Of a stretch of 64,000 bases of DNA, positions 17,578 through 23,981 are shown piece by piece (position 1 is the first letter of the stretch; each line of letters begins with the position of its first letter). The notes under the pieces are model-generated. The model made no database searches. It saw only the letters and a list, made by a program, of their open reading frames with translations, and was not told the origin of the DNA. The stretch is from Escherichia coli (GTDB taxonomy: Bacteria > Pseudomonadota > Gammaproteobacteria > Enterobacterales > Enterobacteriaceae), in NCBI RefSeq assembly GCF_030013595.1, contig NZ_CP122768.1. The stretch is one strand, 5' to 3'. A program made the position numbers and the translations under genes.

Positions 17578-18342
17578 ATGAATAACTCCCCCCGCTACCC
17601 GCAGCGCGTTCGCAATGATCTGCGCTTCCGTGAATTGACTGTGCTACGCGCTGAGCGTATTAGCGCCGGTTTTCAGCGCATTGTCCTTGGCGGCGAGGCG
17701 CTGGACGGTTTTACATCGCGCGGCTTTGACGATCACAGCAAACTCTTCTTTCCTCAATCTGATGCTCACTTTGTGCCGCCAACGGTAACGGAAGAGGGCA
17801 TCGTCTGGCCGGAAGGACCACGCCCACCGTCGCGTGACTATACGCCGCTGTATGACGAACTACGCCATGAACTGGCGATTGATTTCTTTATTCACGACGG
17901 TGGCGTCGCCAGCGGCTGGGCGATGCAGGCGCAACCGGGCGATAAACTCACGGTGGCAGGTCCGCGCGGTTCGCTGGTGGTGCCAGAGGATTACGCGTAT
18001 CAGCTGTATGTCTGCGATGAATCCGGAATGCCCGCACTGCGCCGCCGCCTGGAAACGTTGAGCAAACTTGCCGTTAAACCGCAAGTTAGCGCGCTGGTTA
18101 GCGTGCGGGATAACGCCTGTCAGGATTATCTCGCGCACCTTGATGGTTTTAATATCGAATGGCTGGCACATGATGAGCAGGCAGTAGATGCGCGTCTGGC
18201 GCAGATGCAAATCCCTGCCGATGATTACTTCATCTGGATAACCGGCGAAGGCAAAGTCGTTAAGAATTTAAGCCGCCGCTTTGAAGCGGAACAGTATGAT
18301 CCACAGCGGGTACGTGCAGCGGCTTACTGGCACGCAAAGTAA
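17578..18342 (+). CDS. yqjH: Siderophore-interacting ferric reductase YqjH/NfeF (254 aa)
   Basis: Full ORF MNNSPRYPQRVRNDLRFRELTVLRAERISAGF...; FAD-binding siderophore-interacting protein family. Confidence 0.85.
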   Translation: MNNSPRYPQRVRNDLRFRELTVLRAERISAGFQRIVLGGEALDGFTSRGFDDHSKLFFPQSDAHFVPPTVTEEGIVWPEGPRPPSRDYTPLYDELRHELAIDFFIHDGGVASGWAMQAQPGDKLTVAGPRGSLVVPEDYAYQLYVCDESGMPALRRRLETLSKLAVKPQVSALVSVRDNACQDYLAHLDGFNIEWLAHDEQAVDARLAQMQIPADDYFIWITGEGKVVKNLSRRFEAEQYDPQRVRAAAYWHAK

Positions 18343-18355
18343 CTGATATATAAAA

Positions 18356-18390
18356 AGAAAAAGGCTGACGATTTCTCGTCAGCCTTTGCT
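18356..18390 (+). terminator. Rho-independent terminator of yqjH
   Basis: aggctgacga-tttc-tcgtcagcct hairpin followed by T-rich tract immediately after the yqjH stop. Confidence 0.6.
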
Positions 18391-18825
18391 ATGTCTGGCC
18401 CTGCTGTCTCTTAATTGGTTGTGTAATTAATTGAAATTAAACAGGTAAATGCAATTTATTTTTTATCGATATGCCTTTTTGTATGCCTATTGGGAAAAAC
18501 ACGCTTTCTTCAACAGGGAATAAAAGCCGCTTTTATGGTGTTTTGAAACGGGTTTTAAAATGGCGCTCGTGGTGCTCTCGGGCACTCAATGGCGCTCTGT
18601 GATGTGGCTGGTGGTATGTGGCCGCCATGCATAATGGGGCTGATTTTGTTCATGGCCCGGCAGCGGGTGAGCATTTTTTACCATATTCAGGGTAAAAATG
18701 GGCGAAAAAGTTCATTTCTGGCATGGCCTGAAATGCCACGCAGCCCGCGCCGCGTGTGCTCTTGCCGGGGAAAACGGCGCGGAATAATGACCGCCACCCC
18801 ACCTTATGGCGGGCAGTCCCACGAA

Positions 18826-18905
18826 ATCCCGGTTATTTCCGTTTATTCCCGGATTAATCCCGCCTTCTCCCGCATTCTCCCGGCTGTTCCCGGAATTAAT
18901 CGCCG
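18826..18905. repeat. Iteron-like array of ~7 units (TCCCGG/TCCCGC, 10-11 bp period)
   Basis: aaatcccggttatttccgtttattcccggattaatcccgccttctcccgcattctcccggctgttcccggaattaat. Confidence 0.4.
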
Positions 18906-18916
18906 TGGGGTGGTGG

Positions 18917-19207
18917 TTATCTGGTGTGGTCGTAGTTCTGCCGTAGTCGTTCACCCTCAGCGCAATGACGCGGTTTTTTAACGCCGCTGGTAACGCAACG
19001 CGGGCAGGTCATGACGTGGCTGATATACGCATCACGGGCAGCCAGCCACGTCGCTGACGGGGCGCACATATCCGCCAGCGCCTGGCCGTTGCTGGTGGTG
19101 TTGTCTTCCGGCCATGTTTCGGGCTGGTGCGCTTCCGGTAAATCCGGTGCAGGTAATGCCCGGATAAACTCACACAATGCATCCGGCAGGCTGAATAACT
19201 TATGCAT
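18917..19207 (-). pseudogene. Probable remnant of a rep/helicase-like gene (96-aa ORF)
   Basis: Shares a ~40-nt segment (acatatccgccagcgYctggccgttgctg) and peptide motif SNGQ(A/T)LADM with the intact helicase gene at 20446-20490; no RBS. Confidence 0.3.
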
Positions 19208-19629
19208 AAATCTGATGTTCTGAATCGCTGAAAACGTGCGTTTTATGGCGTTTTTTCGTGATTTCTGCGTGTTCTGATGTGCTCATTTCGCTGTATCCCT
19301 TGTGTGGCGCGGGCTGCGCGTGTGTTTCGGTGTTCTTTTTTACCGCCAGAAAACGGTAATCAGGCATATAAACACGGCTGTAAGCCGCGCCGCGTCTGGC
19401 TTCGCGTGATTTTGTGCGTCAAAAAGTGCATTTTTGCCCTTAAAAAGCGTTATTCGTAATTCACTGGTAAATGCTCCGCAGGCCGCGCCATTGCTGGCCT
19501 TTTCGCTATTCTGTGTGGTTTTGCTGTTTAACCCGTTTTGCACACTAAAATTGCCTTGCATCCCGCGCCACGTAAGGGATTGCCGGGTTTTTATGTTGCG
19601 TTTTTTGCCGTGCGTAATATTGTGCAAGT

Positions 19630-19875
19630 TGGTGGGACTGGTGGGAACTGTGGGAACCGCCTAGAACCACGCGGCTTTCAGTGGTTCCCACCAGTTCCCA
19701 CGTTGGCTTTTTGTGGGAACCGTGGCGGTTATTTTTTGTTCTTTGCGGTTCCCACCAGTTCCCGCAGAGTTCCCACTCAAAAACGAACAATAATCATACT
19801 GATGGTTTTATTATTTACTGATTTATATATGTTTTATTTTTACGGTTCCCACAGTTCCCACCAGTCCCACCACTT
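19630..19875. repeat. Putative origin of replication: at least 11 GTTCCCAC/GTGGGAAC octamer iterons in both orientations flanking an AT-rich stretch
   Basis: Octamers at 19631, 19640, 19649, 19683, 19693, 19712, 19747, 19757, 19768, 19844, 19853; AT-rich tract 19776-19840; immediately downstream of the helicase gene. Confidence 0.6.
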
Positions 19876-19906
19876 TTTCAGTTTTTAAAAACGCAATTTT
19901 TGTGAA

Positions 19907-21745
19907 TTATTCATCAATTGCGAATAACAATGCATTCTGGCCGATGGCGTAAACGCGGTGTTTCTCCCCGTTAACGGAAACGCGTTTTGTGTATCGGCGT
20001 TTCCCGTCCGTGTCGCGGTCAACAATCGCGCCAGCATCGTCAAGACTGGCCGCTATGCGTTTCAGGTCGTAGCCGCTGGCCGCCTCACATAGTGCTTCCG
20101 GTAAAAACCAGTAAACCCGCTCGCCGTTGCTCCCCGGTCGCCACCATCCGGCGCGGGTGCTTACTGGTTCGCTGTATGTGCTGCCCCCTTCAAAGCGTGA
20201 AGCATGGCGGGCGATAAACCCCGCGACGGCCCGGAGTATTTTCACGTCCTCCGATTGCCCCCGCCCACGATAGTCCGCCCACGCATCAAACATCGCTTTC
20301 ACTGCCTCCAGTGCTTCGCCCTGTTTCCACGGCAGAATCCCGGCAGTTATCGCCATTTCCCCGGCCAGTGCGCACAGTGTGAAACGCGCGGCGGCGCGTG
20401 CCTCCTGTCCGGTGCTTACGGGGAATTGTTCGCGCAGTATGGCGTACATATCCGCCAGCGTCTGGCCGTTGCTGTCGGTGCTGGTGGTGTCACTTTCATT
20501 GCGGGAAATCAGCCAGCGCACAAACTCCGGCCCGGCGTGGCCGTAATGGGTAGCCGCATTACCGCGCAGTGTTTCGGCAAATTTCCGGCCTGCTCCCCGG
20601 CGTTCTGTGTCGTTGTCGGGGTTGTGGGGTAGTGCCATTCCGTGAAGACAGTCAAATGCCCCGTAAAGCCGCTGTGCCGGAATATCCAGTAACCGCATTT
20701 CCTGCCCGGCCTTGATGCGCTGGCCGCCGCTTTCCATGTGTTTACCCACGGTCATTTCCCCGGTGGAAATAATCATGGTGCGCCATGTGTTGACCGGGCG
20801 GGCCATGCCGGACACCTTGCCACGCTGACGGCCTGTTCCGTTGCCAAGCTGATAAATCAGCCCGCCAATATCTCTGGCCGGGGCTTCGCCAATTTCATCC
20901 AGTATCAGCGCGGTATCGTTCCGCATGGTTGCCAGCCCTTCAAGCCCGGTGCTGGTGGCGTTCCAGTTGCGTTTAAAGTTGCGGGGTTCTCCCCATACGC
21001 TACAGGCCACCAGCGCCCCCACGCTTTTCCCGCTGGAACTGTCGCCCATGAAATGAAATCCGCCGCTGTCCACATCAAGCAACCACAGCAACGGCCCGGC
21101 GAGCGATGCACACACGGCCAGCATGGTTACCGGGTTTCCCCGGCATAATGCGGCCACGTTGTCGCGCCAGCCCTCCGGCGTTCCTGCGGTGGCGTACTCC
21201 TGTGAGCCTGCTTCTGTTGACTGAAACACCACATCACCATCACCGATAACCCCGCCCGGCATGACAAACAGGGCCGGGGAGTGCCACCCGGTGGCCGTGG
21301 CCGCGAGCGCCCGGCGTTTTGGTGCTGACTCCATGATGTATTCAGTCAGTGCCTGCCGTTGTTTGTAGGGAATGGTAACGCCCATGCGTAGCAGTTCCTG
21401 CCGGAGTTCTCCGCCGTCTCCGGCGAGCATTTCCATCGGTGCGGCCCATTCCCGCCACTGGCCTGACGGCGTGAGAAAACGGAGTAATCGCCCGTAGTTT
21501 TCGTCTTTGCTGTCGCTGGTCATGGCGATGACCTCCAGCGGGGAACATATAAACGTGTCTGTGTTGGTTGAGTCGCGCACGCCGTGCCAGTAAAGGCCGG
21601 GTTTCAGTATCTGGCCGCCGTCCACCTGTACATGCTGCGAATAAGTGGCGTAGCCCGGACGCGCCGGGCTGACTTTGGGGTGTTTCTTGCGTGGTGGTTT
21701 TCTCTTCCCGGATGTGACCGGGGTTTTAGTGGTTGTCCGGGTCAT
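19907..21745 (-). CDS. Replicative helicase, P4-alpha-like/SF3-type (612 aa)
   Basis: Walker A (GDSSSGKS) and Walker B (ALILDEIGE) motifs; overlaps primase stop by 20 nt; followed by iteron origin. Confidence 0.75.
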   Translation of the reverse strand: MTRTTTKTPVTSGKRKPPRKKHPKVSPARPGYATYSQHVQVDGGQILKPGLYWHGVRDSTNTDTFICSPLEVIAMTSDSKDENYGRLLRFLTPSGQWREWAAPMEMLAGDGGELRQELLRMGVTIPYKQRQALTEYIMESAPKRRALAATATGWHSPALFVMPGGVIGDGDVVFQSTEAGSQEYATAGTPEGWRDNVAALCRGNPVTMLAVCASLAGPLLWLLDVDSGGFHFMGDSSSGKSVGALVACSVWGEPRNFKRNWNATSTGLEGLATMRNDTALILDEIGEAPARDIGGLIYQLGNGTGRQRGKVSGMARPVNTWRTMIISTGEMTVGKHMESGGQRIKAGQEMRLLDIPAQRLYGAFDCLHGMALPHNPDNDTERRGAGRKFAETLRGNAATHYGHAGPEFVRWLISRNESDTTSTDSNGQTLADMYAILREQFPVSTGQEARAAARFTLCALAGEMAITAGILPWKQGEALEAVKAMFDAWADYRGRGQSEDVKILRAVAGFIARHASRFEGGSTYSEPVSTRAGWWRPGSNGERVYWFLPEALCEAASGYDLKRIAASLDDAGAIVDRDTDGKRRYTKRVSVNGEKHRVYAIGQNALLFAIDE

Positions 21746-22769
21746 GCTCCATTTCCCATAGCATCAAATCGTTAAAGTCGGAAAGGTCTGGTGATGCACC
21801 GGGCGGCCATTCCGGGAATGTGACGTAACACCCGGCCAGCAATGCGGCTTCGTTGGCTGCTCTGGAACCGGGGTTATCTTTTGATGCCCGGTCATCATCC
21901 CCGGCGATAACGAGAGATATGCGCGAGCCGTATCGCTCACGCAGCGCCATAGCCACATGTTTAAGGTTTCCCGCATTCATGGCACACACCACGGCCATGA
22001 CGTTCCAGTACTGGAGAAGGGCGGCCCCGGTGGCCCACCCCTCACACACGTAAACGTCATGTTCCGGCGCTTCCGGGGCCATCAGGTCAAAGCTCCCCAT
22101 AACATGGAAAGCCCCCTGCACCTGACCATCACGGAGAAACATTTTTCGACCGTCCGGGCTGATAATCTGCACGTTCACCACTTCGCCGCATACGTTGTAC
22201 AGCGGGACAAGCAAATCATTACCTGACTGATACAGATTGCCGGGCTGTAGCCGTTTTTTCATGAGATAGGGATGAGAAGGGTTTGCCACCTCCGCCCGGC
22301 CAAGCAACTCAAAGGCCCGGCAGGCGGTCAGTTTCTGGCGCTGGTGGCGCTGTTGCTGTTCCCGCTGGCGGAGTCTGGCCGCCTCCTGTTCTGCGGCCTG
22401 TACCCGCACCCGTTGCGCCTCCCGTTGTTCGCGGGTCATTACATCAGGTTTGCCCAGCGCGGGCAGGCACAGCCCCAGCCTGTCCGCCACAATACGGGCG
22501 GCATCAGTCTGCCGCACATTCCATAAATAAGCCCCCAGCGCCACAAGGTCGCCGCCGCTGTCCCCGGTGGCGAAGTCGTGCCAGCATCCGTCCACCAGCG
22601 AGACGGAAAAACTGCCCGCGTGACGGTCTGCACGCGTGGGGTTACGACACACCCATTCAGTGGCCTGCCGTTTACCTTCGGGCAGCCATTCGGGAACAAG
22701 GATTTCTGCATGTTGTGCCGCCACTGCGGCAACGCTACGGATTGCGTTAATCGTGGCTATGTCACGCAT
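21726..22769 (-). CDS. DNA primase with zinc-binding and TOPRIM domains (about 347 aa from MRDIATIN start)
   Basis: Zn-binding region C..HAGSFSV..GCWHDFATGDSGGDLVALGA; TOPRIM motifs VYVCEGWATG and LVIAGDDD; start chosen at ATG 22769 overlapping upstream stop (ATGCGTGA); longest ORF extends to 22919. Confidence 0.7.
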   Translation of the reverse strand: MRDIATINAIRSVAAVAAQHAEILVPEWLPEGKRQATEWVCRNPTRADRHAGSFSVSLVDGCWHDFATGDSGGDLVALGAYLWNVRQTDAARIVADRLGLCLPALGKPDVMTREQREAQRVRVQAAEQEAARLRQREQQQRHQRQKLTACRAFELLGRAEVANPSHPYLMKKRLQPGNLYQSGNDLLVPLYNVCGEVVNVQIISPDGRKMFLRDGQVQGAFHVMGSFDLMAPEAPEHDVYVCEGWATGAALLQYWNVMAVVCAMNAGNLKHVAMALRERYGSRISLVIAGDDDRASKDNPGSRAANEAALLAGCYVTFPEWPPGASPDLSDFNDLMLWEMEHDPDNH

Positions 22770-23076
22770 GTTGCCCGTCCTCCCTGATTTCCCCGGTGCG
22801 GCAGCGCCAGTTATACGCCTCCACAACCTCACTGAATCCGGCCACAAGTTCAGCCGTAACAGCGATGGAATCGCCCAGGCTGCGTAGTTCATTTGGACCA
22901 AGAGCATTATTGTCGCCAATTACCGAAAGTAGCCGCCCTGTGCCAGCCAGCGCATCAAGCAGTTTGCGGGCGCAGTAATCCGCATCATCAAACATTGCGC
23001 GGGCTTCCTGTGCGTCTGCGTTTTTGATGGCCGCAACCAGTAGTTCAGGTATCCGGGTGTTATACATATCACGCAT
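22762..23076 (-). CDS. Hypothetical small protein (104 aa)
   Basis: ORF MRDMYNTRIPELLVAAIKNADAQEARAMFDD...; start overlaps upstream stop and stop overlaps primase start via identical CATGCGTGA junctions. Confidence 0.5.
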   Translation of the reverse strand: MRDMYNTRIPELLVAAIKNADAQEARAMFDDADYCARKLLDALAGTGRLLSVIGDNNALGPNELRSLGDSIAVTAELVAGFSEVVEAYNWRCRTGEIREDGQHA

Positions 23077-23365
23077 GGCTTACCTCCCCGGCCTGCTGGT
23101 CGTAACACTCCATCAGTTCGGCCATACAGCCAATGAGGGCAGGGGCTGTCTGTAGAAATCCGGCTAACTGGCAGATCTCGTCTCTGGAATAGGTGATGGG
23201 GTTTTCGCGTAACTGGCTTTCCTCCAGTGCCTTACCAACAAAGGCAATCCCCGCAAGTAAATTCACTCTGTGCCAGTCTGCATCAACGCGCAGACTCCAG
23301 CGGCTTTCTTCGTCCGGCATACTGCTCATGGCGGCTTTCATTGACTCACGCAGACAATCACGCAT
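23069..23365 (-). CDS. Hypothetical small protein (98 aa, start at internal Met MRDCLRES)
   Basis: ORF linked to neighbours by the same CATGCGTGA stop/start overlap; longest ORF extends to 23446. Confidence 0.45.
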   Translation of the reverse strand: MRDCLRESMKAAMSSMPDEESRWSLRVDADWHRVNLLAGIAFVGKALEESQLRENPITYSRDEICQLAGFLQTAPALIGCMAELMECYDQQAGEVSHA

Positions 23366-23555
23366 GACGCACCCCCTGAGCCGGAACGCGGCCAGCAAAC
23401 AGCAACACAAAATCACGCGCCAGCATACGGCGGGCGGTTGTTTCATCGGGTGCGTTGACGGATTCGCGGTGTGGGCGGTCGTTCAGGTCGGAACGGCGAA
23501 CAGCCAGAAAGTGAAAGGTAAATTCAGGGTGTAACGGGGTTGGGGTCGTAGCCAT
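23358..23555 (-). CDS. Hypothetical small protein (65 aa)
   Basis: Strong Shine-Dalgarno AAGGAGG 8 nt upstream of ATG at 23555; the longer 201-aa ORF has junk-like composition upstream of this Met. Confidence 0.5.
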   Translation of the reverse strand: MATTPTPLHPEFTFHFLAVRRSDLNDRPHRESVNAPDETTARRMLARDFVLLFAGRVPAQGVRHA

Positions 23556-23582
23556 TCTGGCAGCCTCCTTTTGCAAATTTAA

Positions 23583-23621
23583 GGAGTCACCGCCTGAGTT
23601 CCTACACTCATAAGGGGCGGT
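23583..23621. promoter_or_regulatory. Inverted repeat GTCACCGCC-N21-GGCGGTGAC upstream of the small-gene operon (candidate operator or 5' hairpin)
   Basis: Perfect 9-bp inverted repeat 26-70 nt upstream of the 23555 start codon. Confidence 0.3.
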
Positions 23622-23744
23622 GACGCTGGCAGGGGTAGGAATACCGGCGCAAAAGGAAACCGGCCAGCCTTTCGGCTGCCCCACCAGCGCCACCATAGAT
23701 ACAGTGCGGGTCTTGCCGCTGTGCATGGGTGCGCGATGGCACGA

Positions 23745-23775
23745 CACAAAAAAAGACGCTGGGCGCGTCTGTGTC
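23745..23775 (-). terminator. Rho-independent terminator downstream of alpA
   Basis: Minus-strand agacgcgcccagcgtct hairpin followed by TTTTTTT. Confidence 0.45.
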
Positions 23776-23981
23776 GCCTTTTGCTCATTAAACGGGTTCC
23801 TACGCCCGGCTGGTGGATTTACACCAGCGGGGGAAATATAACGCCCACCAGCGATGGCAGGCAAGCAATATTTGCGGTTGCCGCCCATCCCGTGGGGCGT
23901 GTGGTGGTTGTTTTGGGCGTGAGAACGCCCCGGCCCTGTTACGGGCCTTTCTGGCATTTTCATAATGATTATCGCGGTTGG

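Follow-up and report, generated by a model that had tools for sequence, protein, structure and literature searches.

An eroded attR at the far end of a P4/CP4-57-type island in the 3' end of ileX in Escherichia coli

Introduction

What happens to the 3' end of a tRNA gene once an integrative element has displaced it? In the Islander model of tRNA islands, as outlined in PMC4383910, the island carries sequence that regenerates the tRNA gene and the displaced fragment marks the far end of the island. The literature names ileX as a gene into which integrative elements, and also the LAA island, insert, and its role as an integration hotspot is already known. We examined ileX in a window of 64,000 nucleotides from E. 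coli contig NZ_CP122768.1 (the whole stretch of DNA that was analysed), in which an imperfect copy of the tRNA 3' end lies several kilobases from the gene. An original prediction, made from the letters of the window, had proposed this copy as the distal att remnant of an island and regarded the boundary as only tentative. The state of such a remnant bears on whether the island can still move, on whether its loss would damage the AUA-decoding tRNA and on where the integrase clade cuts its site. A literature search returned nothing on this ileX element or on att erosion.

Boundaries of the island

The only tRNA gene found in the window by ARAGORN is ileX (Table 1), and its 3' end reads TGGTGGCCCCTGCTGGACTTGAACC on the plus strand at 26713-26737. 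At the other end of the island the 11-mer TGGCCCTGCTG occurs as a single copy in the 64 kb window, at 18396-18406, with a chance expectation of 0.03. The original prediction had found the real motif but placed it one base low, at 18395-18405, within an outer range of 18393-18406 that does include it. The matching 13-mer of the tRNA end, TGGCCCCTGCTGG, had been put at 26717-26729 and is located at 26716-26728, because TGGTGGCCCCTGCTGGACTTGAACC occupies 26713-26737. The copy had been described as lacking one C, which is correct when it is compared with the 13-mer; against the 15-nt 3' end of the gene, TGGTGGCCCCTGCTG, 4 nt are absent as a single contiguous TGGC.

The boundary was determined by a megablast search of positions 17600-19000 against 5,426 complete E. 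coli genomes. Matches were obtained in 5,422 of these, and all but 17 of the matches stop at query base 799, which is position 18398 of the window; the island is present at this site in only 17 of the 5,426 genomes. In island-free genomes the 3' end of ileX, TGGTGGCCCCTGCTG, starts exactly at the homology stop. The empty site of strain T16R reads ...GCTATATC / TGGTGGCCCCTGCTGGACTTGAACC, with the 3' end of ileX 8 nt past the terminator hairpin, and the order in that genome is ...CAGCCTTTGCTATATC / TGGTGGCCCCTGCTGGACTTGAACC..., ileX and then mug. Alignment with T16R, the kind of island-free comparison that the original prediction had called for, shows that chromosomal sequence on the left extends through TGG (18396-18398), that the right junction is identical from 26713 on and that the insertion point is the 3' end of ileX, where the flanks are joined at the repeat. 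The insert of 8,317 bp (18396-26712) is located at the extreme 3' end of ileX, and the annotation of the island can be fixed at these coordinates.

From 18388 the window reads GCTATGTC, then TGG, then CCCTGCTG and then island sequence (TCTCTTAATTGG), giving the junction layout ...GCTATGTC / TGG / CCCTGCTG / TCTCTTAATT, in which TCTCTTAATT belongs to the island. The motif thus lies where the displaced 3' segment of the tRNA had been expected, in register with the homology break at 18398 and with the T16R alignment. Positions 18396-18406 are the attR of the island, with TGG belonging to the chromosome and CCCTGCTG held in common with attL. The boundary between chromosome and island at this junction is firm and exact, rather than tentative: chromosome extends to 18398, the shared block covers 18399-18406 and DNA found only in the island begins at 18407. 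Repeat-based island finders will often miss an attR of this type, since only 10-14 nt are left and these are interrupted by a gap.

The junctions that were read comprise family 1 (the window and 15 genomes with the same island), family 2 (7 genomes) and 4 controls. The family 2 island is a related island at the same site, with 77% DNA identity in the integrase region and a different cargo (a RepA helicase, SSB, Mor and PerC, together with two tRNA genes); the island DNA adjacent to attR differs between the two families. The tRNA genes, tRNA-Tyr and one annotated as "tRNA-OTHER", are at the integrase-distal end (locus L011, 12360-12559; also L012 and L036-L040).

As a bare word, CCCTGCTG is not significant. 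The longest words common to the 3' half of the tRNA and the island are six scattered 8-mers, with CCCTGCTG at 18399 among them, and this number is about what is expected by chance. Such recurrence is what would speak for a chance resemblance of the 11-mer, with an island end that has no real repeat. When this reading was tested it was not supported and was left with hardly any probability: the motif is in register at the exact homology break, it is conserved in the second family next to different DNA and the full 15-mer is present at one junction. The significance of CCCTGCTG comes from its position, because it abuts the homology stop at 18398 in register and is conserved in 22 other junctions. 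Neither an exact copy of the tRNA 3' end nor a longer one was found in 18343-26700 on either strand; such a copy would have displaced this site, and the proposed location stands. No other match to the 25-mer tRNA end with at most 3 mismatches was found, and in gapped and ungapped comparisons of 18343-26700 on both strands nothing better emerged, the best internal match (23804-23829, score 13) being at chance level.

The hairpin beside the motif had been called the yqjH terminator. It is indeed located next to the motif, but its terminator score is on the minus strand, and it is at least as much the terminator of ileX itself. From this score and its position 8 nt after the CCA of the tRNA in the empty site, the hairpin is therefore the ileX terminator, shared with nfeF (yqjH). 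The island brings a hairpin of its own that is likely the replacement terminator for ileX, judging from its fold, its U6 tract and its conservation in family 2 (Table 1).

Table 1. Features of the ileX locus and the island, with window coordinates
Feature	Position	Strand	Basis
nfeF (yqjH), left chromosomal flank	17578-18342	+	ORF; RefSeq name NfeF in matching genomes
Hairpin, 12-bp stem, common to nfeF and ileX	18360-18387		Minus-strand intrinsic terminator score
TGG, last chromosomal bases; remnant of ileX 3' end TGGTGGC (tRNA sense: CCA of ..GCCACCA)	18396-18398	-	Homology end and empty-site alignment
CCCTGCTG, 8-bp block identical to 26720-26727; putative attR crossover (overlap) segment	18399-18406	-	Invariant in junctions read
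Island body	18407-26712	-	ORFs; Pfam and PHROGs; RefSeq annotation of the same island in HCP5S3_I2
Two direct TATGCCT repeats 12 nt apart (18470 and 18482), attR arm; candidate arm-type integrase sites	18470-18488	+	Family 2 conservation
Hypothetical protein, 96 aa	18917-19207	-
DUF927 helicase	19907-21745	-
Toprim primase	21726-22769	-
Two small ORFs, no assigned function	22762-23365	-
Ash/Icd-like protein	23358-23963	-
AlpA-like HTH protein, excisionase-like	23982-24236	-
Hypothetical protein, 296 aa	24370-25248	-
P4/CP4-57-type tyrosine integrase	25250-26524	-	Pfam; 43% match to CP4-57 integrase; translation
attL-arm TATGCCT repeats: inverted 26540-26546; direct 26571-26577 and 26583-26589	26540-26589	+
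Island-borne hairpin followed by U6, ~40-80 nt downstream of ileX	26630-26672	-	Fold -24.3 kcal/mol, z = -2.65; conserved in family 2
attL core TGGTGGCCCCTGCTG, 3'-terminal 15 nt of functional ileX	26713-26727	-	Identical in all island-bearing and empty-site genomes examined
ileX (tRNA-Ile2, anticodon CAT), intact	26713-26788	-	ARAGORN; 100% identity to empty-site gene; RefSeq tRNA-Ile
mug, right chromosomal flank	26913-27419	+	ORF

Island content and classification

The genes of the island are all on the minus strand, co-oriented with ileX, and the start of the integrase gene is 189 nt from ileX. An integrase gene adjoining an intact tRNA gene, a far-end repeat (11 nt of 15) and an empty site in related genomes are the features of a tRNA-gene island, and all three were found. 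The integrase contains the Pfam domains Arm-DNA-bind_3 (PF13356, 2e-20), Phage_int_M (PF22022, 5e-23) and Phage_integrase (PF00589, 5e-28), and the box residues are present in the translation as R (ICRPCE), HGLR and Y (RRAYNRS). An arm-binding N-terminus, a core-binding domain and a catalytic R..HxxR..Y arrangement are those of a heterobivalent integrase. Its identity to a phage protein that carries the annotation "CP4-57 integrase" is 43%, and its relatives among 100,044 species genomes are distant only (at most 56% identity) and are mostly located beside tmRNA genes. TATGCCT repeats are present ~70-90 bp inside the left end and ~125-170 bp inside the right end of the island, and pairs are found in both arms of family 2 as well. 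These pairs fit the predicted arm-type sites of a heterobivalent integrase, with both island ends as att arms.

An integrase, an AlpA-like protein and a primase-helicase, the combination that is used to recognise P4-like satellites, are all encoded. The satellite phage P4, which integrates at leuX, is like the island in its Arm-DNA-bind_3 integrase family, its primase-helicase module, its small AlpA/Vis-like HTH protein and its tRNA 3'-end target. Unlike P4 (11.6 kb), the island is 8.3 kb in length, has its primase and helicase split into separate Toprim and DUF927 proteins and has no detected Psu, Delta, Sid or cos functions. Pfam and PHROGs searches of the island ORFs gave no homologues of Psu, Sid or Delta, and four ORFs were without a match. 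The label of a P4-like phage satellite was dropped because Psu, Sid and Delta, as well as cos-associated functions, were not detected. PADLOC gave no matches to defence systems among the unannotated ORFs of the island. The island is an ordinary further P4/CP4-57-type integrative element.

Three copies of GGTTCCCACCAGTTCCC, two of them exact, are located just downstream of the DUF927 helicase gene (19683-19699, 19747-19763 and 19853-19869); they are iteron-like and may belong to a replication origin. A 43-nt repeat with 88% identity between 19061-19103, in the region of the 96-aa ORF, and 20441-20483, in the helicase gene, suggests a partial duplication. Otherwise identical copies of the island in ETEC4090, ETEC1732 and ETEC1734 carry IS26 with aph(3')-Ia, or an ISEc12 insertion.

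A nested series of deletions at attR

Every junction that was read has the form flank-TC, then a segment X, then CCCTGCTG and then the island, where X includes the C that adjoins the block. The 23 attR junctions include clone-mates (STEC306 and STEC308; HCP5S3_I2 and LCP30S3_I5), so the number of independent events is lower than 23. The complete segment TGGTGGC, which gives a perfect 15-mer, was found only once, in OkiPb01685 of family 2, where both island ends are perfect. The remaining junctions have X shortened to TGGTGG (1 nt missing, n=6), TGGTG (2 nt, n=4), TGGT (3 nt, n=1), TGG (4 nt, n=5, with the window included) or TG (5 nt, n=5), and a single junction (OkiPb01712, locus L040) has the odd state TGGG, in which 3 nt are missing but not as a single contiguous deletion. 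Brute-force enumeration determined that all states except TGGG can be described as one contiguous deletion that ends at the seventh base (C7), directly before the 8-mer. At least 1 nt is therefore absent next to the identical block, on the side of the RNA 3' terminus, in 22 of the 23 ileX attR junctions, and in the terms of the Islander model (PMC4383910) the displaced fragment is intact in only 1 of 23 and is otherwise shortened in a position-specific manner.

The block CCCTGCTG is invariant in 23 of 23 attR and 11 of 11 attL cores across the two island families. The attL core is identical in all 11 genomes in which it was read, and positions 26200-26800 are 100% identical in 8 genomes. Family 1 islands in pig strains that cover all four family 1 states differ by ~0-2 SNPs over 8,314 bp, as estimated from bit scores, and the attR state is independent of the nfeF allele. 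As a control, three genomes that have another island in the anticodon loop of ileX keep a perfect TGGTGGCCCC beside the same terminator, and because it is intact there the displaced sequence is not intrinsically unstable.

Two explanations that leave the integrase uninvolved have to be weighed against these observations. Differences in junction length could be sequencing or assembly errors, since some long-read assemblies are unreliable in runs of G and C. The states are, though, up to 5 nt apart, which is beyond homopolymer length, and an artefact is very improbable because the four common states are each found in at least two assemblies from different laboratories and clone-mates agree. Alternatively, the displaced tRNA fragment, which is without function and contains short repeats prone to slippage (TGGTGG and CCCC), might simply undergo neutral decay. 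We consider this improbable, as at least seven length states are present within 7 nt against 0-2 SNPs in the adjacent 8.3 kb, all states but one end at the same base, no substitutions were seen, the same sequence with the same hairpin is intact in the three genomes with anticodon-loop islands and the pattern recurs at ssrA. The shortening at attR does not look like random decay: the deletions are nested, recur from junction to junction and are specific to this integrase clade. What is modestly novel is this pattern of attR erosion, not the island, which is ordinary.

Related islands at ssrA

The K-12 element CP4-57 (IntA/AlpA) is integrated in ssrA and has attL as ...CCGCCAGC-T-CCACCA followed by AAATTC and attR as ...CCGCCAGC--CCACCA followed by ATCATG, which corresponds to state -1. 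State -1 is also found in two further ssrA islands. One of these has its arm in common with an O157:H7 island that is at -5 (CGCCAGC-CA followed by ATCATG). Among genomes that bear CP4-57 no restored perfect attR was found at 100% match. The ssrA islands carry an analogous identical block of 7-8 bp and, in our own reading of the sequences, the base missing at ssrA and the one missing at ileX would both be at the equivalent of tRNA position 70.

CP4-57 is like the ileX island in having a P4-type integrase beside an RNA gene, an AlpA-type regulator/excisionase and integration at the extreme 3' end of the gene, and its attR has the same layout of an 8-bp identical block, one nt missing, CCACCA and the chromosomal flank. 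It is unlike the ileX island in its tmRNA target, its size of 22 kb and its other cargo; the ileX integrase is ~43% identical to the CP4-57 type and K-12 shows only the -1 state. CP4So of Shewanella oneidensis likewise has a P4-like Int and AlpA, and its attL and attR differ by one nt in the acceptor 3' strand (PMC5148205). CP4So is different in that it has a tmRNA target, is found in another genus and is 36 kb in length; a population series of nested deletions was not reported for it (PMC5148205). Excision of CP4So from ssrA was determined experimentally to leave ssrA without one U at its 3' end, the 1-nt deletion of attR having been transferred to the gene (PMC5148205). Because excision carries the attR deletion into ssrA, the CP4So crossover lies closer to the gene interior than the missing base does (PMC5148205).

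Far from being a passive fossil, the displaced tRNA end varies by a rule between islands that are otherwise identical, and the same rule holds at ssrA. The single cases that have been published, CP4-57 and CP4So, were read as regulatory switches; a nested series found across a population suggests that the cause is mechanistic and more general.

At two Vibrionaceae loci (L027, 16058; L030, 9622) CCGCCAGC occurs again ~6.3 kb downstream of the tmRNA gene, each time in the identical context ..GGTTGGTTTG CCGCCAGC ACTTTTC.., with no CCACCA after it. These copies could be fully eroded attR sites, or a coincidence inside a conserved gene.

Crossover position and the origin of the deletions

The explanation that we regard as very probable, taken as a whole, is that the locus is the attR of an 8.3 kb P4/CP4-57-type element in ileX, with a probable crossover in CCCTGCTG and with a shortening that we attribute to the integrase. 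The element would have entered the extreme 3' end of ileX by site-specific recombination with a tyrosine integrase. The 3'-terminal 15 nt of the tRNA that the island carries would then complete the functional ileX at 26713-26727 (attL), and the original 3' end would be displaced to the nfeF/ileX terminator at the integrase-distal junction. Strand exchange is placed within CCCTGCT(G) of the 8-mer CCCTGCTG (tRNA sense CAGCAGGG, tRNA positions ~62-69) because of the analogy with CP4So and the invariance of the block. In this strain the chromosomal TGGTGGC at attR would have been cut down to TGG. It is hypothesised that the series arises from the integrase acting at attR, through cleavage that aborts and is re-sealed beside the scissile phosphate, and that junctions unable to excise cleanly may be preferentially kept and hence sampled.

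Integrase activity probably drives the erosion. Type IB topoisomerases form a 3'-phosphotyrosyl intermediate with a free 5'-OH and generate 2-5 nt deletions via sequential cleavage and re-ligation, and the attR deletions may be likened, by analogy, to this Top1-type deletion chemistry.

An attP sequence from the circular form of the element was searched for in viral contigs with an island-end 21-mer and a predicted attP 20-mer (0 matches) and in metagenome contigs with a 22-mer (0 matches). As no attP or excised attB sequence was found, we infer the crossover position rather than observe it. The alternative that bears most directly on this position is that attP is natively a 14-nt imperfect copy (TGGTGGCCC-TGCTG) and that the crossover takes place in TGGTGG(CCC), such that the missing C was inherited and only the loss of TGG is secondary. 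This alternative accounts for CCC being present in 22 of 23 attR sites in two diverged families and for attL always having CCCC. If attP(14) recombined conservatively with attB(15), the products would be exactly attL(15) and attR(14); starting from attB(15), such a reaction has this outcome only if attP is 14 nt with the crossover in TGGTGG. It is nevertheless unlikely, since OkiPb01685 of family 2 has a perfect 15-mer at both ends, the variable bases would fall inside the overlap itself, the invariant block is the 8-mer and not TGGTGG, the further nested losses are left unexplained and the crossover of the related CP4So is on the other side of the indel (PMC5148205).

Excision scars in ileX with a -1 or -4 core were searched for in island-free genomes among the 5,426, and none were found. 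Their absence is compatible with lock-in of the island, with counter-selection of scars or with an attP that natively has CCC. Models of slipped recombination between TGG TGG, offset cleavage and heteroduplex formation were also considered and set aside, as each predicts an altered attL and attL is unaltered; no conservative reaction that we considered yielded the series. If crossover within the 8-mer is correct, excision through it would truncate the acceptor end of ileX, as for CP4So at ssrA, or the island may be locked.

A wider and decidedly tentative proposal is that CP4-57-clade integrases leave behind position-specific nested attR deletions, or build them up step by step, and that these always abut a 7-8 bp crossover block and mark the cleavage point, with the result that the island is locked or its excision breaks ileX or ssrA. 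If this were true, it would amount to a hostage-like stabilisation of the island, and natural attR variation would map the scissile position. The variation could then be viewed as the mutational signature of a recombinase, to be compared with the short deletions that type IB topoisomerases make.

A second integration sublocation in ileX

Integration into ileX is also found at a second sublocation. Islands with a different integrase are located in the anticodon loop, where they interrupt the tRNA after ...GATTATGAGT(C). Some are found singly and others in tandem with 3'-end islands (loci L002, 19100-19400; L019-L021, ~2297-2345; L038, 12458-12520; and L039), and in the tandem arrays ARAGORN detects no intact tRNA near the first island. 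The anticodon-loop element of OkiPb01685 (L038, 12670-23525) encodes a major capsid protein, a head decoration protein, a head-tail connector and a small terminase, and by this gene content it looks like a capsid-forming satellite.
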